From a virus (Duplodnaviria; Heunggongvirae; Uroviricota; Caudoviricetes), in IMG/VR virus record IMGVR_UViG_2654587569_000008: DNA of 11,201 nt. The stretch is one strand, 5' to 3'. Numbering within the stretch: position 1 is the stretch's first letter; the number at the start of each line of letters is the position of its first letter. Below are positions 1 to 11,201 of the stretch, in pieces. The position numbers and the translations under genes were made by a program. Below the pieces are notes generated by a model that had not been told where the DNA came from, made no database searches, and worked only from the letters and a program-made list of their open reading frames with translations.

Positions 1-1242
1 ATGGCACGAAAAACCACCCCACTAACCATTACGGAGATCAAAAACGCACGACCAGGGGAAAAGGAATACACCCTGCAAGATGGCGGAGGATTATTTCTTC
101 TGGTGAAGCCCTCCGGATCAAAAATATGGCGTTTTACGTACTACCGCCCGGCAGATAAAAAACGGACTATTATCAGCCTTGGATCGCTGAATGATGTTTC
201 CCTGTCTGATGCCAGAGAGCGACGGAATGAATACAGGTCACTAATAGCAAAGGGAACTGACCCACAGGACCATGAACGCCGGAAACGTGAAGCAGAGAGC
301 CGGAAAAAGGGCAACACGTTCGAAAAAGTTGCCTCGGACTGGTACGAGATGAAAAAAGGCCAGAATCTGGCTTACAACACGATTAAGGATATCTGGCGAT
401 CCCTGGAAAAATACGTATTCCCGTACATCGGAAACACGCCAATAGATACCCTCACCGCTCGCCGCTTTGTTGAGATACTCACACCCATTAAAGCACGCGG
501 CAACCTGGAAACTCTGAAACGCGTTTTACAACGCATCAATGAAGTGATGGATTTTGCTGCCAACAGTGGGCTGATTGACATCAACACCGCCGCGAACGTC
601 CGCAAGGCATTCCCTTCCCCCACTAAAAAGCATATGCCAACCATCCGACCGGAACAGCTACCGCAGCTAATGCACGATTTATCGGTCGCCAGCATAGAAC
701 GGCAAACCAGATTGCTAATCGAGTGGCAACTGCTGACCGTAGCACGCCCAGCCGAAGCAGCCGCCGCACGCTGGGAAGAAATAGATCTCGATGCCGAAAC
801 ATGGACGATTCCAGCCGGACGCATGAAGATGCGCCGTGACCATGTGATCCCCCTTTGCGGTCAGGCTATGGCTGTACTGGAAACCATGAAGCCAATCAGC
901 GCACACAGGGAACACGTTTTTCCCAGCCTTAAAAACCCGATGCTGCCAATGAGCAGCCAGACCGCTAACGCCGCATTGCGCCGGATGGGTTACGCTGGTG
1001 TGCTGGTGTCTCACGGATTACGCGCCATATTCAGCACAGCAGCGAACGAGGAAGGATTCGAGCCGGACGTAATCGAGGCCGCGCTCGCACACGTGGACAC
1101 GAACGAGGTAAGGCGAGCATATAACCGAAGTAACTACCTGGAAAAGCGCGTGGTGCTTATGCGCTGGTGGGGGGAATTTGTAGAGGCCGCAGCAACTGGA
1201 GTGACCATAGCCAGTGGTAAAAGGGGTATCCGTGCCGTGTAA
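1..1242 (+). CDS. int: Tyrosine recombinase/integrase, P4 / CP4-57 (IntA-like) family
   Basis: 413-aa ORF. N-terminal MARKT.PLT..EIK...YTL.DG.GL.L..K.SGSK.W.F.YYRP and C-terminal catalytic region (HVIPL...VSHGLRAI...R..YNRS.YL..R..LM..W) match the P4-type integrase family as recalled. Window starts on its ATG, so attL and the target tRNA/tmRNA would lie upstream, outside the window. Confidence 0.9.
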   Translation: MARKTTPLTITEIKNARPGEKEYTLQDGGGLFLLVKPSGSKIWRFTYYRPADKKRTIISLGSLNDVSLSDARERRNEYRSLIAKGTDPQDHERRKREAESRKKGNTFEKVASDWYEMKKGQNLAYNTIKDIWRSLEKYVFPYIGNTPIDTLTARRFVEILTPIKARGNLETLKRVLQRINEVMDFAANSGLIDINTAANVRKAFPSPTKKHMPTIRPEQLPQLMHDLSVASIERQTRLLIEWQLLTVARPAEAAAARWEEIDLDAETWTIPAGRMKMRRDHVIPLCGQAMAVLETMKPISAHREHVFPSLKNPMLPMSSQTANAALRRMGYAGVLVSHGLRAIFSTAANEEGFEPDVIEAALAHVDTNEVRRAYNRSNYLEKRVVLMRWWGEFVEAAATGVTIASGKRGIRAV

Positions 1243-1948: not shown

Positions 1949-2097
1949 TGGTGTGAGGCGTAACGCGATGAACATAACAAAAAGCGCCCCGTTACCGGAG
2001 CGCCCTTGCGAACAATTAACCTGCTGCGAAAAAAATGGATCAGTGCAGGGGAATTATATCAACCGTGTGGCGAAGCGCCACAATTGCCGGATAACAG

Positions 2098-2127
2098 GCA
2101 AAACAAAGGCCACCCGCTACGGTGGCC
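2098..2127 (-). terminator. Rho-independent terminator for the minus-strand two-gene unit
   Basis: Perfect 7-bp GC-rich stem GGCCACC-(CGCTAC)-GGTGGCC; on the minus strand it is followed by TTTGTTTT. Lies about 80 nt beyond the stop at 2207. Confidence 0.6.
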
Positions 2128-2206
2128 CCTCGACACAAGCTACACGTTATCCCCAACGCATGAGCATCACCAACAATGCCACATTTGCGGCTGGTGGGCA
2201 ATGTGA

Positions 2207-2380
2207 TCAGTCAGATTTGGTTCGTTCCAAGGTTTGCAACGAGAGCTTTTTCCTGTGCTCTTTAAGGAATTTCTCAAGAGCAAACGAACAAGGTGCGAAT
2301 CTTTCTGATTCATGTTCTATCTTTCTGCGCCGTCTTTTCCGTGCCGGTGATAATGTTTTGGTCAATTCTTTATCGGTCAT
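2207..2380 (-). CDS. Hypothetical small highly basic protein (57 aa; alternative start at 2395)
   Basis: Second gene of the minus-strand unit. AGGA about 9 nt upstream of the ATG at 2380. Arg/Lys-rich (ARKRRRRK); no recognisable family. Confidence 0.4.
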   Translation of the reverse strand: MTDKELTKTLSPARKRRRRKIEHESERFAPCSFALEKFLKEHRKKLSLQTLERTKSD

Positions 2381-2437
2381 TGTGTTGTCCTGCATAGCAA
2401 TGCGCCGTAGTTACTCACACCACGGCGCTGGTGATGG

Positions 2438-2617
2438 TTACTCCTGCTCTTTGGCCTTGCGCCGCTGGCGGCGTTTGATCTCGCCTTGCATTGACGTAAT
2501 GATGAATTGTGATGTGCTTTCGCCTGATTCTTTCACTGATTCCATGGCGTTTACTATTTCGTGTGGTACACGAGCCTTTAGAGCTTGTGATTTTGCGTTT
2601 GTTGTACCCGTTGCCAT
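2438..2617 (-). CDS. Small putative DNA-binding regulator (ribbon-helix-helix-like pattern), candidate island repressor
   Basis: 59-aa ORF starting at an internal ATG of the listed 2438..2791 frame, with GAGGAA 7 nt upstream. KSQALKARVPHEIVNAMESVKESGESTSQFIITSM resembles the strand-helix-helix layout of CopG/Arc proteins. Divergent from the early operon with operators in between. Function is inferred, not demonstrated. Confidence 0.45.
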   Translation of the reverse strand: MATGTTNAKSQALKARVPHEIVNAMESVKESGESTSQFIITSMQGEIKRRQRRKAKEQE

Positions 2618-2678
2618 TTCTATTCCTCTGGTGGATTGGTGGGGGACAGTATACACAGAAAAAGCACAAATAAAACTC

Positions 2679-2724
2679 TTGACGTGGGCCACACCTAAAA
2701 CATATAGTGGGCCACACCTTAAAA
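2679..2724 (+). promoter_or_regulatory. Sigma70-like early promoter overlapped by two direct-repeat palindromic operators
   Basis: TTGACG (2679-2684), 18-nt spacer, TATAGT (2703-2708). Two copies of GTGGGCCACACCT(T)AAAA at 2684-2700 and 2707-2724, 23 bp apart, one between -35 and -10 and one over the start region. Core GTGG-G-CCAC is itself a palindrome. Confidence 0.45.
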
Positions 2725-2816
2725 TTATCAAGGCGCATAAATGCAAAGCCCCGCAAGTGTCGTTACCACTCGCAGGGCTTCTAACCACCAACGATAGCAG
2801 AAGTATCGAGGTAGCT

Positions 2817-3023
2817 ATGAGAAATTATACCAGACACCCGCAAGGGCGGGACTCGCACAACCTGAATAAATACATCTGGCGTTTTATCGCCCTGAGCACG
2901 GCACAACCGCGCGTGATTACCATTGAGGCCACCAGCGAACAGGAAGCACGCCAGCAATCTCCTGATGGCTGCGTGATGGTATTCGCCGCCCGTATTCGTC
3001 AGGAGGTGCGCCATGTGCAATAA
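2817..3023 (+). CDS. Hypothetical protein (68 aa), possible first gene of the early operon
   Basis: ATG with GAGGT 5-6 nt upstream; its stop overlaps the next gene's start. It is the 3' part of a long, otherwise implausible plus-strand ORF, so confidence is low. Confidence 0.3.
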   Translation: MRNYTRHPQGRDSHNLNKYIWRFIALSTAQPRVITIEATSEQEARQQSPDGCVMVFAARIRQEVRHVQ

Positions 3024-3703: not shown

Positions 3704-4003
3704 ATGAAACAGAAAAATTCTGGCTTTACTGCCAGCGGCCTCTCTCGGCCTGAAATCCGCCCCGGCGATATTTTCAAAGATAAATACGGCGGCACTGTAA
3801 CGATTAAAAGCGTGGTGGGACGGTGTGTTACTTACCGCCGTGATGGGTACGGCTATGACTGCGTGATGCCTGTTTATCAGTTCCGGCGTGATTTTTCTCT
3901 GGTACAGAACGCAACACGCGGTAAGCCCACCAGCAGGGAAAAAGCACGGGAAAATATTAAGAAAATAAAAAGCATGCTCAGCGCATCCAGAGGTAAAAAA
4001 TGA
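3704..4003 (+). CDS. Hypothetical protein (99 aa), basic C-terminus
   Basis: GGAGAA upstream of the ATG; its stop overlaps the repA start (ATGA at 4000-4003). Confidence 0.55.
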   Translation: MKQKNSGFTASGLSRPEIRPGDIFKDKYGGTVTIKSVVGRCVTYRRDGYGYDCVMPVYQFRRDFSLVQNATRGKPTSREKARENIKKIKSMLSASRGKK

Positions 4004-5406
4004 AACTGGCACCGAACGTAAAACTGTTACCGAAAGATAAACACACTGAGGCGGTTATTTTTGCGGGTGATAATGCTCACTCCTTTGCAGAACATTACAT
4101 GATTGCACAGGCCAAAAAAGCAGGCGATCCCATCCCTCCGGTTTACCTGGGCCGTTATCAGTTAAGCGAACTGGACAATTTACAGATTGTTGATGAAGGA
4201 CGATACAGAGCAAAGGTCATACGCGCCGGAAACCTGGACGATATGCAGATGCTGACCATTGCCACCAAATTGGCGATCGCAGGTGTCCGGGAAGCGCGGT
4301 TACTTTCAGAGAATTTCGAACTACTGGAGGACTGGAGCGAGCAACTACCGCGGCTTAAAGAAACCTGGGAACGCGGGGAAAGTCTGGTCATGAATGGTGG
4401 AAAGCGAAAAATCACACTTCCCATCTCATGGGGTTCTGAGGGATTCGACGCGCAGCAAAGCTACGTAATTAAGGGGCTTATTCCGGCTGAATCATTATGC
4501 AGCACCTACGGGGCCAGCGGTTCTTATAAATCGTTCCTGGCTATTTCCTGGTCGTGTCATGTTGCCACAGGTATAGCATGGGGAGGCCGCAGGGTAAGTA
4601 AGGGCGCGGTTATTTATATCGCTGGCGAAGGCAGCATGGGCGTAAAACGCCGCGTTAAGGCGTGGGAGATAACCCACGACAAGGTGGTTACAGATTTGTG
4701 CATCATTAACGCGCCTGTTTTCCCTGCATCGCCTGACTATGTGGAGCAGGTTATCAGAACTGCCGGACTTGTTAAGAGCAGAACGGGCGAAAATGTGCGG
4801 CTGATTGTGATAGACACGCTGGCCCGTTGCTTTGGTGGGAATGATGAAAATGATTCCCGTGATATGGGCGCATTTATCCAGGGGTGTGACGCGATAAAGC
4901 AGGCCACAGGGGCCACGGTGCTGGTGGTTCACCATTCCGGCAAGGATGAAACAAAGGGGGCGCGTGGTTCCAGCGCATTCCGTGCCGCACTGGATGCAGA
5001 GTACCGAATCAGCCGGGAAAATTCAGACGTTACAGCACTGGTGGCGGCGTGTACGAAGATGAAGGACGCAGAGGAGCCAAAAGAAAGCGCATACGACCTT
5101 AAAAGCGTGGAGGTGTTTACCGATACAGATGGCGAAGAGATTGTGTCCATGGTGGTGATTGACGTTCCCCGCGCCCCTGCTGAACTGGAACGCATCGAGG
5201 AGGCCGGGAACAAGACGGAAAATCACACGGCTTTATGGGGTTGTATCCGATCACGTATACAGCATGGTGATAAATGCACGATCCCGCTGCTACGTGACGA
5301 CATGAAAAAGCTGGGATATGACACAAAACACCTTAAACGATGGTTAGCAAAACTGGAAAAAGACGGCGTGATTTGCGTCGATGGGGATGATGTTCACCCA
5401 CTGTAA
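4000..5406 (+). CDS. Replication initiator/helicase, RepA-like RecA-fold ATPase (AAA_25-like)
   Basis: 468 aa. Walker A-like GASGSYKS, Walker B-like LIVIDTLARCF, a VLVVHHSGKDE motif, and a basic C-terminal tail that could be a DNA-binding domain. No primase domain recognised. Followed immediately by an iteron array. Confidence 0.85.
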   Translation: MKLAPNVKLLPKDKHTEAVIFAGDNAHSFAEHYMIAQAKKAGDPIPPVYLGRYQLSELDNLQIVDEGRYRAKVIRAGNLDDMQMLTIATKLAIAGVREARLLSENFELLEDWSEQLPRLKETWERGESLVMNGGKRKITLPISWGSEGFDAQQSYVIKGLIPAESLCSTYGASGSYKSFLAISWSCHVATGIAWGGRRVSKGAVIYIAGEGSMGVKRRVKAWEITHDKVVTDLCIINAPVFPASPDYVEQVIRTAGLVKSRTGENVRLIVIDTLARCFGGNDENDSRDMGAFIQGCDAIKQATGATVLVVHHSGKDETKGARGSSAFRAALDAEYRISRENSDVTALVAACTKMKDAEEPKESAYDLKSVEVFTDTDGEEIVSMVVIDVPRAPAELERIEEAGNKTENHTALWGCIRSRIQHGDKCTIPLLRDDMKKLGYDTKHLKRWLAKLEKDGVICVDGDDVHPL

Positions 5407-5610
5407 AAAGTGGGCGTTAAAAGTGGGAATAGTGGGTAATTTAACCGAAATTTAACAAAATCGCCCACTTTCCCACGTGTATACATCCAAAAAAGTGGGC
5501 ACTAAAAAAATACTTATGAAACAGTACGATATAAAACCACAAAATCCCAGGTGGGACGAAGTGGGAAACCATGAAAAGTGGGCAGAAAAAGTGGGCACAG
5601 GTGGGCGCAT
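5404..5610. repeat. Iteron array, putative origin of replication
   Basis: Eleven copies of the GTGGG core within about 200 bp, mostly as AAAAGTGGGC(A): nine direct (5410, 5423, 5432, 5495, 5551, 5561, 5578, 5591, 5601) and two inverted CCCAC (5464, 5472), with A-rich spacers. Directly downstream of repA. Confidence 0.6.
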
Positions 5611-5860
5611 GACAAGAAAAACCAGAGATAAGACAGCACCAAAATATAAAGCGTTAGACATGACAGAGCACGCCTTAAAGGTGGCAATCAGAACGATAGA
5701 CCGCCACGCCGGGGAAGGATACGCGAAAGCACATCCCGAACTGATAAGCGCATTCATGACCACGACGGCGGCAAATTTTGCCACGCTGACAGAGCGGGAG
5801 ATTGCCGAAGCGGAACAGGTAACAACAATCAACGTTAAAACCGGAGAGGTGGAATCATGA
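5609..5860 (+). CDS. Hypothetical protein (83 aa from the ATG at 5609; ORF open from 5477)
   Basis: AGGTGG just upstream of the ATG at 5609; the longer version would be translated across the iterons. Stop overlaps the ssb start (ATGA). Confidence 0.4.
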   Translation: MTRKTRDKTAPKYKALDMTEHALKVAIRTIDRHAGEGYAKAHPELISAFMTTTAANFATLTEREIAEAEQVTTINVKTGEVES

Positions 5861-6279
5861 CAGCACAGATAGCGGCTTACGGGCGGCTGGTGGCTGACCC
5901 GCAGTTAAAGACCACCAGCAAAGGGACACAAATGGCGATGGCGAGTATGGCAGTTCCCCTGCCGTGCAGCCAGGCAGATGACGGAACGGCGACGATGTGG
6001 TTATCTGTCCGGGCGTTTGGCAGACAGGCCGACGCACTGGCAAAACACCACAAAGGCGAACTCCTGAGCGTGGCGGGTAACATGCAGGTGAGCCAGTGGA
6101 CAGGCCAGAACGGCGAAACGCGGCAGGGCTGGCAGGTTATCGCAGACAGTGTAATCAGTGCCAGAACGGCGCGACCGGGCGGCAAAAAAGGTCAACAGGG
6201 GCAGGCTACTGACGCACTGAACAGGGCAAAACAACAGGCGGGAAATGATGATCCGTACGGGGATAACATACCGTTTTAA
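5857..6279 (+). CDS. ssb: Single-stranded DNA-binding protein (SSB)
   Basis: 140 aa. OB-fold region aligns by eye with E. coli SSB (GRLVADPQL..., W..V..FG..A......KG......G.....W....G), and the C-terminus ends DDPYGDNIPF, matching the SSB acidic tip D-D-D-I-P-F. GGAGAGGTGG RBS. Confidence 0.8.
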   Translation: MTAQIAAYGRLVADPQLKTTSKGTQMAMASMAVPLPCSQADDGTATMWLSVRAFGRQADALAKHHKGELLSVAGNMQVSQWTGQNGETRQGWQVIADSVISARTARPGGKKGQQGQATDALNRAKQQAGNDDPYGDNIPF

Positions 6280-6295
6280 GCAACGAGTAACAGAG

Positions 6296-6317
6296 GCCGG
6301 AGCAATCCGGCTTTTAT
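6296..6317 (+). terminator. Rho-independent terminator ending the replication operon
   Basis: GCCGGA-(GCAA)-TCCGGC followed by TTTTAT, 17 nt after the ssb stop. Confidence 0.6.
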
Positions 6318-6552
6318 CAGTTGAGTCCGTCACACTACGCAAAAAAAAAGGCCGGAATATTCCGACCCCTTCATCACCAAAGAGAATAATTTATGTCTTT
6401 GAACTTGTAACGCTGTACAGAATGACACGTAACGCCGGATAAATAAACGAAGATTGAAACTTTGCACACTATTGCATAGCAATGCATAAAGATGCCAAAC
6501 AAGGCAGATGATAAAATTAACGCGACACTTTTACTAAGTATTAAGAGGTTAT

Positions 6553-7593
6553 ATGAGTGATTTATATTCGCCAGCCATGTTAATACAGGTTGTTAATGCC
6601 GAAGATATTCAATGGCAGATTAATTCTTTATTTATAAACCTGTTTTTTAAGCGAGTCGTTACATTTGAGACGCGGGATATTGCGCTTGATATTATTGACG
6701 ATCCAGACATCCCGATGGCTGCATTTTGTTCCCCTATGGTTGGTAGTAAAGTCTCACGCGATGAAGGCTACGAATCAAAAGTAATTCGCCCTGGCTATAT
6801 GAAGCCAAAAAGTAGTATCGACCCAAATAAAATAGCCGTTCGTCAACCAGGCGTATCACCTGAACAATTCAATGCATATTCATCACGCAGTTTCAAAATA
6901 AAGCGAGCGTTAGTAAGACAAGCGCAGGCAATTCGTGCGCGTATTGAGTGGCTTGCTGTTCAGGCGGTTACAACGGGGAAAAATATCATTGAAGGCGATG
7001 GAATTGAACGTTATGAACTGGACTGGAATATAAAACCACAAAATATTATCACGCAGTCCGGCGGCACGGAGTGGAGCGGTAGAGATTTATCAACATTTGA
7101 TCCAAACGATGACATCGAAGAGTACGCAGAAATCAGCGAAGGTACTACAAATATCATCGTAATGGGCCGCAACGTATGGAAAAAATACCGCGCCTTTAAA
7201 GCAGTAAAAGATTGCCTTGATACTCGACGGGGATCTAATTCCGTTCTTGAAACGGCCCTGAAAAATCTTGGGGATTCTGTAAGCTTCAAGGGTTACGTTG
7301 GCGATGTTGCTATTGTGGTATATAGCGGACGTTATACCGACGAGGACGGCAAAGAAAAATATTTCCTTGATCCTGATTTGATGGTGCTTGGCAACACATC
7401 ATTACAGGGCATCGTTGCCTACGGTGGCATTCAGGATCCTGAGTTAATCAGAATGGGGCTGACTAAAGCCGAACTTGCGCCGAAAAATTACATCGTACCA
7501 GGTGATCCGGCTATTGAATATGTGCAGACGCACAGCGCACCGCAACCAATACCGGCCCGCATCAATCGTTTTGTTACCGTTCGCATTGGTTAA
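6553..7593 (+). CDS. Major capsid protein, phage lambda gpE family
   Basis: 346 aa (lambda gpE is 341). Long blocks match gpE as recalled: NIITQSGGTEWS, KAVKDCLDTRRGSNSVLETA, GDVAIVVYSGRY, MVLGNT, PGYMKPK, PKNYIVPGDPA. AAGAGG RBS. Confidence 0.9.
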   Translation: MSDLYSPAMLIQVVNAEDIQWQINSLFINLFFKRVVTFETRDIALDIIDDPDIPMAAFCSPMVGSKVSRDEGYESKVIRPGYMKPKSSIDPNKIAVRQPGVSPEQFNAYSSRSFKIKRALVRQAQAIRARIEWLAVQAVTTGKNIIEGDGIERYELDWNIKPQNIITQSGGTEWSGRDLSTFDPNDDIEEYAEISEGTTNIIVMGRNVWKKYRAFKAVKDCLDTRRGSNSVLETALKNLGDSVSFKGYVGDVAIVVYSGRYTDEDGKEKYFLDPDLMVLGNTSLQGIVAYGGIQDPELIRMGLTKAELAPKNYIVPGDPAIEYVQTHSAPQPIPARINRFVTVRIG

Positions 7594-7602
7594 GGGGGAG
7601 CA

Positions 7603-7944
7603 ATGGCTACTCATTACACTGAACTCATGGCTGGCACTGAAGCACTGGTTACTACGTTGGGGATATTTTCAGCTAATAAAGGGGTAATTCCTGCATTTAC
7701 GCCACTGATGCAAGAAGATGCAACTGGTGCACTGGTGGTATGGGATGGAACGAGCGCAGGCAAAGCTGTTTATGTTTCCGCTGTACAAATCGATACAGCG
7801 ACAAAAACGCAGGCTCAGGTTTATAAAACCGGCGTCTTAAATGTTGATGCTCTGAACTGGCCTGAGTCTGTAACACAACTATCAGCAAAAGTTGCTGCGT
7901 TTGTTGGCTCAGGTATTTCTGTTCAGCCGCTGGCACGTGTGTGA
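7603..7944 (+). CDS. Head decoration protein, phage lambda gpD family
   Basis: 113 aa (gpD is 110). TPLMQEDATGALVVWDGTSAGKAV against gpD [24 protein letters not shown], and VYKTGVLNVDALNWPES against FYKSGTFRYEDVLWPEA. AAGGGGGAG RBS. Gene order is E then D, the reverse of lambda. Confidence 0.8.
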   Translation: MATHYTELMAGTEALVTTLGIFSANKGVIPAFTPLMQEDATGALVVWDGTSAGKAVYVSAVQIDTATKTQAQVYKTGVLNVDALNWPESVTQLSAKVAAFVGSGISVQPLARV

Positions 7945-7953
7945 GGTACGAGA

Positions 7954-8298
7954 ATGATTGAAAGAGATAGTCAGCTACGAGAGCTATTAGATATCGATGA
8001 CAAAATGAGTTTAAGCGAGCGCCTTGTTGATATGGATCAGGTAGTGGAGCTTACAACCCTTAGCCGTCGCACATTGCTAAACCTTGAGGCTCGCGGAGAG
8101 TTCCCCGAACGCGTACAGGTTACGAAAGGGCGCAAGGCATGGTATTTAAGCGAGGTTGTTGCGTGGATTAACAACATTCCGCGCGCATCAAATTATTGCC
8201 TTGTTCCCACCCCCGAAAAACCTGATGCGGCGTTATGCCTCAAGATTGAACGCGCCAGGCGTAATGCCCTGAAAGGACGCAATAAGTTGATTGGTTGA
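7954..8298 (+). CDS. Second AlpA-family HTH protein inside the late module
   Basis: 114 aa. VVELTTLSRRTLLNLEARGEFPERVQVTKGRKAWYLSEVVAWINN fits the AlpA/excisionase-type HTH. GAGG RBS. Confidence 0.7.
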   Translation: MIERDSQLRELLDIDDKMSLSERLVDMDQVVELTTLSRRTLLNLEARGEFPERVQVTKGRKAWYLSEVVAWINNIPRASNYCLVPTPEKPDAALCLKIERARRNALKGRNKLIG

Positions 8299-8400: not shown

Positions 8401-8499
8401 TGGTGGTGGTGGTTTTGTTTTTCGCTCTATCTCTATGAATAAAAAGGGAAAGATAACACCAACACACCAACCTGAAACCTTAACTAAGTGGGGATATTG

Positions 8500-9042
8500 A
8501 TGAAATCGCACCTGATGAACAAAAAAACTATGGCGCAAAGCTGCCGCGTAAGTGCGACAGCGTTCGACAAGTGGGGAGTAACTCCCGTTGAGCGTAAAGG
8601 CCGTGAGGCGTTTTATGATGTTGCTAGCGTGATAGACAATAGGGTTAACAATGCAATTAACCAGCTTACAAACGACAAAGGCGAGATTGATGATGATGAA
8701 CTTTTACGCGTAAGAATCAGATTAATGACGGCCCAGGCGGAAGCGCAGGAACTTAAAAACGAGCGCGAACGCGGCGAGGTGATTGATACAAAGTTTTGCA
8801 TCTACGCGATTTCAAAACTAGCGAGTCAGATTTCATCAATCATGGACAGCCTCCCGCTCACAATGCAAAGGCGCTTTCCCGATATAAGGCCGTATATGCT
8901 GGATGAACTAAAAAGGGAAATAGCCAAAGCATGTAACGCATGTGCAAGACTTGACGAAAACCTGCCACAGATACTGGCTGATTACCTGATGGAAACTACC
9001 GGAAACGCGCCTGAGAAGTTGCTACAGAACAAAGGCGAGTAA
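8500..9042 (+). CDS. Terminase small subunit, lambda Nu1 family
   Basis: About 180 aa from the ATG at 8500 (ORF listed from the GTG at 8488). C-terminal two-thirds align by eye with Nu1 (RLMTAQAEAQELKNERERGEVIDTKFCIYAISKLASQISSIMDSLPLTMQRRFPDI against Nu1 RLTRAQADAQELKNARDSAEVVETAFCTFVLSRIAGEIASILDGLPLSVQRRFPEL). N-terminal DNA-binding region is related but more diverged. About 135 bp downstream of cosN, as in lambda. Confidence 0.85.
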   Translation: MKSHLMNKKTMAQSCRVSATAFDKWGVTPVERKGREAFYDVASVIDNRVNNAINQLTNDKGEIDDDELLRVRIRLMTAQAEAQELKNERERGEVIDTKFCIYAISKLASQISSIMDSLPLTMQRRFPDIRPYMLDELKREIAKACNACARLDENLPQILADYLMETTGNAPEKLLQNKGE

Positions 9043-9115: not shown

Positions 9116-9397
9116 ATGACTGAAGCCGAACTACTGGGATTAATCCGCCGCGTCGTCGGAATCAGCCAGCAGCATGACGAACAGGCCACACAGCCGGACA
9201 GCGTGACCGCTGAAAATTATGTGCGTGTTGTTGCTGAGGTGATGCGCCGTGATGGTATTGAGCTTAACGGCGTGGATATGCGCAACATACGAACAAGAGT
9301 CCTTGAGTTGCTGGCATACCGTCGCCGTTCTCAACAACGGAGGGAGAGCGCGAAAAATACTTACCAGTGGAAGAAGCCGGAACGGTTGCGGCGGTAG
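9116..9397 (+). CDS. Hypothetical protein (93 aa)
   Basis: GAGGG 5 nt upstream of the ATG. Last gene of the late module; no recognisable family. Confidence 0.45.
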   Translation: MTEAELLGLIRRVVGISQQHDEQATQPDSVTAENYVRVVAEVMRRDGIELNGVDMRNIRTRVLELLAYRRRSQQRRESAKNTYQWKKPERLRR

Positions 9398-9534
9398 ATT
9401 CCTGATATTCAGGAAAACCACGAATCTGTGGGGTTTACTGGCGCGGTTACGGCGGTGACACGCACCGAGGCAGAACGATTACCGTAAGTTAAAGTGACGG
9501 TATTCACACCAAAGGCAGAAATCAGCGGTTAACG

Positions 9535-9705
9535 TAACTGACTGATATTTTCGGGAACAGCCAACGGCTGAGGCCGGAACAACCGACTATCTTTCAGATA
9601 GTCACAAACTACGAAATTTTCGCAGTTTAATTACTCGCCAGCTTAATCGCTAACCCACTGATATTTTCGGAAACCTCGATTTGAGGAGACCGGAACGTCT
9701 ACATA
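9535..9705. repeat. Two imperfect ~50-bp direct repeats with a structure-preserving variable hairpin
   Basis: Copy 1 at 9535-9590 and copy 2 at 9651-9705 share ACTGATATTTTCGG(G/A)AAC and AG(G/A)CCGGAAC. The segment between them differs in sequence but forms a hairpin in both (CAGCC-AAC-GGCTG against CCTC-GATTT-GAGG). Confidence 0.4.
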
Positions 9706-10115
9706 GCTGCATCACCGTAATGATGATTTGGCCCACCAGCAACCATAACGATTTCCGTTACAGTTGATGTGCTTTTTTGCTGGTAAGGAGTAACCTGTTG
9801 ATTGTTCCAGAATCCCCCATTGGGGAAAACTGGAAAACTCACCCTCCAGATTCTGAATGGTGAAAATGACCATTCAGCTTCATGTGTCCATTTTCCCGAA
9901 ACAGGAAAACCCGTTTTCGGGAGAAGGTGCGATTATGTTCGTCATACCTGTTCCGTTGAAACGGAATACCCCATTCCGGCGTAGCTGATGGACGCACAGC
10001 CACATACAACTAACTTTGCGCGTCAGTATTGCTGACCCGCAAACAACAACCAGGCAACAGAACGTTACCCGATTCAGCCGTTCGGTGGCATCACTGGACC
10101 CACTTTCCTGATGCG

Positions 10116-10271
10116 TTTGCGGGTTATTTGGGGGGTGTTTGCGGGTTATTTTGAATGTCTTGCGGGTTACGTTTTGGCTAACATTTAAACACACCATTTT
10201 CCAACACATTGATATTAAAGAATAAAAAATACTTAGCACGCGAAGATAACCCGCTAACCCGCATAACCCGC
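10116..10271. repeat. TGCGGGTTA repeat array: three direct and three inverted copies flanking an AT-rich core
   Basis: Direct copies at about 10116, 10138 and 10158 (roughly 21-22 bp apart). Contiguous inverted copies GATAACCCGC / TAACCCGC / ATAACCCGC at 10245-10271. About 75 bp of AT-rich DNA between the clusters. Confidence 0.5.
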
Positions 10272-10383
10272 ACTGTTTTGTATATATATACGAAAAATTG
10301 CATTCAGGAGGGGGGATCGGAATCCCTACACCCCATTGCTTATGGAACCGCCCGCCCCGTCAAATTTTTACATCCGCGAAATT

Positions 10384-10412
10384 AAAAAAATGCGTCACGC
10401 AGGTGGGCGTGA
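10384..10412 (-). terminator. Rho-independent terminator (minus strand)
   Basis: Stem TCACGC-(AGGTGG)-GCGTGA; on the minus strand it is followed by the complement of AAAAAAA (10384-10390). A perfect 8-bp palindrome CGATACCG-GGATCT-CGGTATCG sits next to it at 10415-10436. Confidence 0.45.
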
Positions 10413-10627
10413 TGTCGATACCGGGATCTCGGTATCGGTTTATCCGTGATCATCCACCAGCTTGATAACGGATAACAGGGAGTCATAACAGTTAAAATTG
10501 TATACTTTTGCAGCAAACATTTTTAGCTACACGTTAAGCTATACGATTTTTGACTTACAAATTTCAACCTTAATTAAATCAAGTAGTTATTGGTGTGTTT
10601 TGAATACTCTCGTGAAAATCCCAAGAA

Positions 10628-10656
10628 AACCAACCTATTGCGGTTGGTTTTTTTAT
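10628..10656. terminator. Bidirectional intrinsic terminator
   Basis: Perfect 8-bp stem AACCAACC-(TATTGC)-GGTTGGTT with TTTTTTT on the plus side and an A-run (T-run on minus) on the other. Lies about 60 nt beyond the stop of the minus-strand gene at 10716. Confidence 0.6.
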
Positions 10657-10715
10657 ATCTGCATTTAATTCGATAAACAGACCGCGACACATCACGGCCT
10701 GTTTATTTTCTGTTA

Positions 10716-11201
10716 TCAGAACGTCCAGACTACACCCGCCTGAGTTGTGCTGCTTTCTTCACAGGAGAAACGACTATCGATACCGAGCGTCAGGCCCGTC
10801 AATGTTTGCTCAAAGCCAGCTCCCGCATCAGTGTTCACGCTGTTGCGGCTGTTAATTGCCGAACTCCACATCGCCGTATCGTAATTAACGCCTTTTACGC
10901 TACCAAGACGCCCACGCACGGTGTCCAGTTCTGCATCAAATACCAGCGGTTGTGCTGCCGCCATATTCAGCACATCCGTGGTTGAAGGGGGCATTTGTAC
11001 GCGATTCTCTGCGAGACTCCAGCTATGGTTGCCATTATCCAGCAAGGTATATTCATACGTACTGATATCAACAACGCTTCCGGCATTGCCCAACGTAAAT
11101 GCCGCATCACCGCGCCCTCCTTTAATCGTGGGATCATTCGCCGCGCCATAAACCTGTAGCACTCCATTATTGATCGTAGTCTGATTTACCGCGCCACCCA
11201 T
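10716..11201 (-). CDS. 3' part of a gene running off the window: autotransporter-like passenger/junction fragment, apparently without the beta-barrel
   Basis: N-terminus lies beyond 11201. Passenger-like repeats (TINNGVLQVYGAAN...), a junction-like motif (TVRGRLGSV...AMWSS...GAGFEQTLTGLTLGIDSRF), then a stop after ...GVVWTF, only about 20 residues into what would be a ~250-aa barrel. Family assignment is pattern-based and tentative. Confidence 0.45.
   Translation of the reverse strand: MGGAVNQTTINNGVLQVYGAANDPTIKGGRGDAAFTLGNAGSVVDISTYEYTLLDNGNHSWSLAENRVQMPPSTTDVLNMAAAQPLVFDAELDTVRGRLGSVKGVNYDTAMWSSAINSRNSVNTDAGAGFEQTLTGLTLGIDSRFSCEESSTTQAGVVWTF

Follow-up and report, generated by a model that had tools for sequence, protein, structure and literature searches.

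A repeat array beside the cos site of a PICI-type phage satellite: probably a detached second origin unit of the DUF927 replicase class

The window, that is, the whole stretch of 11,201 nucleotides analysed here (IMG/VR record IMGVR_UViG_2654587569_000008), carries a PICI-type phage satellite of ~10.8 kb between tRNA-Pro and yejO, and related E. coli islands sit between tRNA-Pro/yejM and yejO. Pfam and PHROGs scans covered 22 larger ORFs, namely all those of ≥100 aa without overlap to a larger ORF, and the genes that they identified are listed with the other features in Table 1. In the left part of the satellite, an ORF of 356 aa (1953-3023) matches phage transcriptional-repressor families with its last ~85 residues (phrog_6196, E = 4e-52); it has no Pfam match, and its N-terminal 270 aa are uncharacterised. 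The same regulatory region holds a near-perfect palindrome with 20-nt arms (AAAAACAGTGCCCACCGTTT/AAAGGGTGGGTACTGTTTTT) and a tandem 22-nt repeat (GTGGGCCACACCTAAAA…), at 1636-1677 and 2684-2728, which may be operators or terminators. Further to the right, a conserved 93-aa gene (9116-9397, phrog_1561) is followed by two 46-nt direct repeats (9535-9580 and 9651-9696), which are 74% identical and each contain a short stem-loop (CAGCCAACGGCTG, CCTCGATTTGAGG). These repeats are also found in the islands L002, L026 and L027, and have no match in Rfam.

Table 1. Coordinates of genes and sequence features in the window
Feature	Position	Strand	Remarks
Integrase with arm-binding domain	1-1242		Pfam/PHROGs scans
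DUF4222 protein	3704-4003		Pfam/PHROGs scans
RepA-family helicase (AAA_25)	4000-5406	+	Pfam/PHROGs scans
RepA-proximal origin	5396-5606	+	12 GTGGGM/KCCCAC units around two AT-rich stretches, directly 3' of repA
SSB	5857-6279		Pfam/PHROGs scans
Lambda-E-like major capsid protein	6553-7593		Pfam/PHROGs scans
D-like decoration protein	7603-7944		Pfam/PHROGs scans
AlpA-like protein	7954-8298		Pfam/PHROGs scans
Nu1-like small terminase (TerS)	8488-9042		Pfam/PHROGs scans
Shuffled right-end module (unknown DNA, origin unit, cos)	9710-10420	+	blastn; common to islands at other att sites
Degenerate seventh unit	10033-10041	-	TGACCCGCA on the + strand; 76 bp upstream of the array
Direct iterons TGCGGGTTA x3	10118-10126, 10140-10148, 10161-10169	+	Exact; start-to-start 22 and 21 bp
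AT-rich core, presumed melting region	10170-10246		77 bp, 31% GC against 48.7% window-wide
IHF consensus TATCAATGTGTTG (WATCAANNNNTTR)	10202-10214	-	Exact; mid-core
Tandem inverted iterons x3	10247-10272	-	+ strand reads TAACCCGC-TAACCCGCA-TAACCCGCA
Constant linker ACTGTTTTGTATATATATACGAAAAATTG	10273-10301	+	Travels with the origin unit; also in L007
phiP27-like cos core	10307-10390	+	84.5% identity with the cos-site region annotated in phage phiP27
10-nt cos end CGCCCGCCCC	10349-10358		77 bp from the array
Integrase-type repeats TAGCTACAC, AAGCTATAC	10524-10544	+	Right att arm; arm-type candidates
Probable attR core, tRNA-Pro 3'-end remnant	10601-10614	+	AATaCTCTCGTG against AATCCTCTCGTG; putative core assignment

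The subject of this study is an array of three direct and three inverted repeat units around an AT-rich core near the right end of the satellite. On the minus strand, TGCGGGTTA is exact at 10255-10263 and 10264-10272, and a third copy, at 10247-10255, departs from the 9-mer at one position (TAACCCGCT on the plus strand), while the 8-nt core GCGGGTTA is exact in six of six copies. The inverted copies are contiguous with periods of 8 and 9 bp. The pattern GYGGGTTA has eight matches in the window against 0.80 expected, a number reached in 0 of 200 shuffles, and the IHF consensus has four matches against 0.63 expected. A preliminary description, made from the sequence alone, had reported a six-copy array with direct copies about two helical turns apart and an AT-rich middle of ~75 bp. 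The array is real and its copies lie at the positions first given; the measured spacings are 22 and 21 bp and the middle is 77 bp at 31% GC. Its end falls at 10272 instead of 10271. No Rfam match was found in 9300-10720 at E<=1, and a sigma-70 scan of 9400-10720 gave no promoter-like site.

The same unit also occurs next to replicase genes. Scanning IMG/VR for the tandem unit gave 71 loci, and ~40 of these encode a DUF927 replicase with GCGGGTTA iterons directly 3' of it. The origins of these loci occur in two layouts. In composite origins (12 loci: L025, L027, L030, L042, L055, L060, L062, L063, L071, L073, L085 and L088), a second block adjoins the rep-proximal block: two direct units are followed by an AT-rich core and then by three tandem inverted units, with the linker ACTGTTTTGTATATATATACGAAAAATTG behind them. 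Next comes a gene, here called gene X, homologous to window 5609-5860. L003, L008 and L017 have the composite layout built of GTGGGTTA units. In split origins (L005, L035, L040, L044, L046, L047, L064 and L072), there are three direct units in the second block, which lies 5-9 kb away and is joined to cos by the linker ACTGTTTTGTATATATATACGAAAAATTG. Every split-type array is cos-linked, and the distance from array to cos is constant at 77 bp. L005 illustrates this layout: directly 3' of its DUF927 rep are two tandem TGCGGGTTA units, an AT-rich stretch and four TAACCCGCA units spaced 21 bp, and the island also holds the 3+3 array plus cos, 4.6 kb from the rep-proximal block. The L005 replicase is encoded at 1785814-1787937 of NZ_CP128926.1.

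The fully sampled GCGGGTTA-type DUF927 islands have two units each, adjacent or split, which hints that the distal unit might be needed in cis. For composite L027, sampling of 0.9 kb at the right end, behind the p93 gene, showed no array; the contigs of L020, L026 and L036 stop before the island end, and their right ends are not informative on a distal unit. In DUF927 loci of ten further genera, de novo analysis revealed mostly a 2/5/2/3 composite origin, in which each locus has its own unit (TGGGTTA, CGTGGTTCA, TTGGTTCA, TGAACCG, GGGATAA) in both halves. In the window, the degenerate unit at 10033-10041, which is kept in L004, L005 and L006, may be what is left of the adjacent block of a composite origin.

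Among solved structures, the DUF927 Rep matches 8tch, a 'Pathogenicity island protein' (E = 1.7e-15), and has a weaker match to 5dgk. A cognate replicase supplied by a helper phage was considered and rejected: when the C-terminal domain of the GCGGGTTA class was compared by tblastn with 50,697 phage records, nothing was found beyond the L003 lysate contig and one match of 49% in a Klebsiella phage. L003 (OR845527.1, 2,183 bp), deposited as an unverified 'Escherichia phage' lysate contig, is a satellite fragment with the 3' part of a DUF927 replicase gene and the GTGGGTTA composite origin, and its presence in a lysate suggests that DUF927 satellites get packaged in phage lysates.

A comparison of replicases with their iterons indicates which protein the unit belongs to. 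The E. albertii island L007 encodes a DUF927 replicase with rep-proximal iterons TTGTCCCA/GGGACAAG. Its cos-proximal block has the 3+3 architecture, the linker and the cos type of the window, and its units are three copies of CTTGTCCCA and three of GGGACAGG, which match its own rep-proximal iterons. More generally, the iteron of the cos-proximal block matches the in-cis Rep in L005, L007, L035, L040, L044, L046, L047 and L072. Among users of GCGGGTTA, the C-terminal ~110 aa of the replicase are 88-100% identical. Between L007 and L005, the centre of the protein is 90-100% identical, whereas the C-terminal domain is only 27-56% identical. Iteron class is not reflected in the N-terminal ~130 residues. 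Judged from these identities, iteron class follows the C-terminal ~110 aa of the replicase. The T/C position of the unit is exactly that separating the DUF927 specificity classes.

The other end of these proteins behaves differently. An N-terminal domain of ~140 aa is 67% identical between the RepA/AAA_25 helicase of the window (4000-4416) and the DUF927 replicase of L005 (2258-2675), and DUF927 replicases differ in this domain independently of their other parts. The domain is a shuffled module, always preceded by an overlapping DUF4222 gene.

The satellite in the window has an origin of its own. Its RepA-proximal origin is placed as DUF927 origins are, between rep and gene X/ssb, and the small gene that comes after it (5609-5860) is homologous to the gene after DUF927 composite origins. 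A stretch of this origin, aaaaaaatactta, resembles aataaaaaatacttagca in the core of the array, a likeness that hints at a shared ancestral origin scaffold. The RepA of the window resembles DUF927 Rep in the N-terminal 140 aa only, and a search of the window for the DUF927 C-terminal domain gave no match even at E<=10. The array lies 4.7 kb downstream of repA instead of directly after it, and its iterons do not match the specificity of the in-cis RepA (GTGGGM). Since RepA uses GTGGGM iterons and a DUF927 C-terminal domain is missing, the array is an orphan here. The arrays of L004, L006, L059 and L061 are orphans as well. About half of the classifiable cos-linked units belong to this group. 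Islands of the RepA type and of the D5-primase type show only one cluster of their own iterons; the primase of L006, for instance, has its own CTGTCTACC iterons.

A comparison of 29 unique cos-linked arrays shows no change in 44 of 48 columns of the units, against 52 of 107 columns of the spacers (Fisher p = 1e-7). All 29 arrays retain the IHF consensus with variation at its four N positions, and the core keeps a length of 76-78 bp and a GC fraction of 0.27-0.32. From this column pattern, the units and the IHF site are judged to be under purifying selection. Cognate arrays differ at 2 of 336 unit positions and 66 of 749 spacer positions, and orphan arrays at 1 of 240 and 36 of 535, respectively. 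The orphans show no sign of decay, and their lineages may have been orphaned only recently. An absence of relaxed constraint in orphans is not predicted by pure hitchhiking, unless the transfers are recent.

The array does not move alone. In blastn comparisons, the segment shared by the window with L004 and L005 covers 9710-10420, and that shared with L006 covers 9835-10408; the whole segment of 9710-10420 is 91-94% identical and its array-plus-cos core 93-98% identical in these three islands. The three islands differ in other respects: L004 sits at yejO and has a divergent RepA, a DUF1441 protein and another TerS; L005 sits at thiM and has a DUF927 replicase, while capsid and TerS genes were not found there by the reference-protein scan; and L006 sits at clpS and has a D5-type primase and a ClpP-capsid fusion protein. 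Compared with the integrase of the window, those of L005 and L006 reach only 22-24% identity, and the AlpA-like protein of the window has no match in L004, L005 or L006. The reverse case is L002, the TW11681 island, whose TerS, integrase and RepA are 98%, 99% and 94% identical to those of the window. There, unrelated DNA replaces window ~9700-10395, array included, and its AlpA-like protein is 79% identical overall with a near-identical helix-turn-helix stretch. Taken together, the comparisons with L002 and with L004-L006 mean that the array follows neither the integrase, TerS, the AlpA-like protein nor the in-cis replicase.

Moreover, array and linker are joined to at least three cos variants, and L007 joins a different array to a phiP27-like cos variant, which argues for recombination on both sides of the linker. 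The array of the window has probably arrived together with its neighbouring cos segment by recombination, most likely as part of the cos-end module (~9710-10420). A search of the phage genome collection for the array matched only the phiP27 cos core and L003. The identity of 84.5% with the phiP27 cos spans window 10307-10388, and the phiP27 cos region shows no such repeats.

Several further observations concern packaging functions. phiP27 has a packaging set of HNH protein, P27-type TerS and TerL, and the window combines a lambda-type capsid, decoration protein and Nu1-like TerS with a phiP27-like cos core (10307-10390), which is a mismatch. L002 carries a different cos-like segment at 12370-12450 (…GGACCGCCGCCTGACCC…) despite its 98% identical TerS; hence, TerS does not covary with the cos module. 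Four GTGAC(A/G) direct repeats with 10-bp spacing occur in L002 upstream of this segment (12197-12227) and in L004 in the middle of the island (6315-6346), and they are unrelated to any replicase iteron found.

These data are best accounted for, with a probability that we put at about 0.8, by an orphan second origin unit of the DUF927/SaPI-Rep-like class that became detached and lies beside cos. At first, another reading was favoured, in which the array serves packaging in the manner of cosB, with R-type repeats bound by the Nu1-like TerS of the island or the TerS of a helper and an IHF site that, like lambda I1, would direct terminase to the adjacent cosN. In its favour, the island encodes a Nu1-like TerS, its cos is phiP27-like with its end 77 bp from the array, all split-type arrays are cos-linked, and opposed repeats around a conserved IHF site resemble the R3-I1-R2-R1 arrangement of lambda (PMC6739421, PMC9026076). 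A satellite with its own packaging-specificity protein would also resemble PICIs whose cosB is recognised by Rpp-TerS. The array is indeed adjacent to cosN with an IHF site between its repeats, which is also compatible with an origin. L002, in which the N-terminal DNA-binding region of TerS is identical, has completely different DNA at the array position, and L007, with the same cos type and linker, has another unit that follows its replicase. On these two points, L002 and the covariation with the replicase, the packaging reading was dropped. The repeats of lambda and PICI cosB differ from the array in that the array units covary with the replicase and not with TerS or cos type, one array being linked to at least three cos variants, and in that the homologous block of composite islands occurs away from cos, adjoining rep and a gene. 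L005 has the array although TerS was not found there in the reference-protein scan, and the cos region of phiP27 lacks such repeats. A TerS-binding cosB is therefore unlikely.

It is also improbable, to a similar or slightly greater degree, that RepA, the helicase of the island itself, fires the array as a functional second origin. Its design is that of a canonical origin, the N-terminal ~140-aa domain of RepA is 67% identical to that of DUF927 replicases, and the GTGGGM and GCGGGTTA units are one base apart within a GNGGG core. However, iteron type tracks the C-terminal domain and not this shared N-terminal one, and the differing base is the T/C position that separates the DUF927 specificity classes. 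L002, with its 94% identical RepA, has no array, and islands of the RepA and D5-primase types show a single cluster of own iterons. The preliminary description had separated the array from the GTGGG iterons beside repA and assigned it to a different protein. This distinction agrees with our comparisons, in which the unit corresponds to an iteron of the DUF927 class.

As the protein in question, that description had proposed the integrase or an AlpA-like protein, with the array as an arm site of att. Oriented repeats around an IHF site, an integrase with an arm-binding domain and a position near the right end, ~330 bp from the probable core, are what arm-type integrase/excisionase sites of attP would offer. 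Against them, the 93-98% identical array occurs at thiM and clpS with integrases of only 22-24% identity and other att sites, while the island with the 99% identical integrase (L002) has no array. The left arm has no copies of the unit. The repeats common to both arms are instead TAGCTAYACG, with four copies between tRNA-Pro and int (L002 2410-2470) and two in the right arm (window 10520-10544), and the left (L002) and right att arms have a 16-nt identity, TTTTTAGCTACACGTT, in common. Arm sites were rejected on this integrase comparison and att-arm repeat analysis, and we regard them as very improbable. AlpA-like binders fare no better, as L004-L006 have the array with no match to that AlpA-like protein and L002 has the protein and no array.

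The preliminary description had put the right boundary just downstream of the array if the array were an arm site; the boundary does lie there, though not for that reason. From position 10615 on, the sequence is conserved across ~2,400 E. coli genomes. Since 10601-10614 resembles the 3' end of tRNA-Pro and abuts this conserved chromosomal DNA, the element probably ends at ~10614, roughly 340 bp past the array. Between cos and the att arm, an inverted repeat TTATCCGTGATCA…TGATAACGGATAA lies at 10440-10475, and in L002 its two arms both differ (TTATCTGT…ACAGATAA) and yet still pair. This palindrome may serve the integration module as a protein-binding site.

A centromere-like partition site, likewise suggested earlier, has only the clustered and oriented repeats in its favour. 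The Pfam and PHROGs scans of the 22 larger ORFs found no gene of the ParA, ParB or ParM type, and the unit covaries with a replicase, which makes partition the least credible of these readings. Thus, from the earlier list of candidates, the second origin is the one retained, with a canonical satellite-origin design and a unit that is a replicase-family iteron.

The detached origin unit can be compared with several known systems. In satellite phage P4, ori and crr are two clusters of type I iterons of the alpha protein, ~4.5 kb apart and both needed in cis. Cognate split islands (L005, L007, L035 and others) are similar in having two clusters of the same iteron 2-9 kb apart and in being cos-packaged satellites of ~10 kb. 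Unlike P4, they use a DUF927/SaPI-Rep-like replicase and not alpha, and each of their clusters is a full iteron/AT-rich/iteron unit; the window differs further in having the distal cluster only, with no such replicase. In iteron plasmids, clusters apart from the origin, such as those of the incA/incC type in P1 and F, can bind the initiator without being the origin that fires. The array likewise is an iteron cluster apart from the origin proper, but its initiator is not encoded in cis, and it keeps a full origin architecture with AT-rich core and IHF site.

In architecture, the array resembles the origins of SaPIs and Gram-negative PICIs. SaPI Reps are self-loading helicases whose C-terminal winged-helix domain reads opposed iteron sets around an AT-rich region (PMC9371898). 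Opposed iteron sets flanking an AT-rich region, as described there and in the legend to Fig. 2 of PMC6092414, correspond to the 3+3 GCGGGTTA units flanking the 77-bp core of the window, and the DUF927 Rep is a sequence homologue of the solved pathogenicity-island Rep 8tch. In contrast to these origins, the array is 4.7 kb from rep and beside cos, not directly downstream of rep, and it would be the second unit of a two-unit mirrored origin whose cognate Rep is absent.

According to our reading, the array would be a complete PICI/SaPI-type origin unit, in which opposed iteron sets flank an AT-rich melting core bent by IHF, and GCGGGTTA would be read by the C-terminal domain of a DUF927-family replicase. 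Such replicases usually come with a two-unit mirrored origin immediately after rep; a group of islands in E. coli and E. albertii has this second unit detached and beside cos at the right end, and the array of the window would be one of these. By analogy, Rep C-terminal domains would bind the spaced and tandem units and IHF would bend the 77-bp core, which would then melt and allow helicase hexamers to load. We infer that a DUF927 Rep binds and melts the array and that the island's own RepA does not. For any activity of the array in this island, a co-resident satellite would then have to provide DUF927 Rep in trans.

With no cognate replicase and a distance of 4.7 kb from rep, the array may have no replication role here. 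The constant 77 bp to cos in split islands could point to an extra role related to packaging. The array may therefore be inert in this island, be fired in trans by the Rep of a co-resident satellite, or also serve as a packaging aid. More tentatively, the orphan cos-linked unit might be selected to exploit co-resident DUF927-type satellites through replication in trans, or to compete with them through titration of Rep, which would be a form of satellite-on-satellite parasitism or incompatibility; or a unit organised by Rep and IHF at 77 bp from cos might couple the initiation of replication to the loading of terminase. We consider this group of proposals possible but rather doubtful.

Our results assign the array to a replicase family and not to the integrase, AlpA or TerS, and they correct the att arm sites and the boundary of the island. 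In the satellite literature searched, we found no description of the two-unit mirrored origin of DUF927-type replicons, which is conserved across many enterobacterial genera, of a detached second unit that, in certain islands of E. coli and E. albertii, moves together with the cos module, or of the shuffling of this cos module into islands with unrelated replicases. For annotation, this means that an iteron/AT-rich/iteron block cannot safely be assigned to the replicase on the same element. Moreover, if orphan units are used in trans, satellites would interact with each other via replication, and not only via their helpers.
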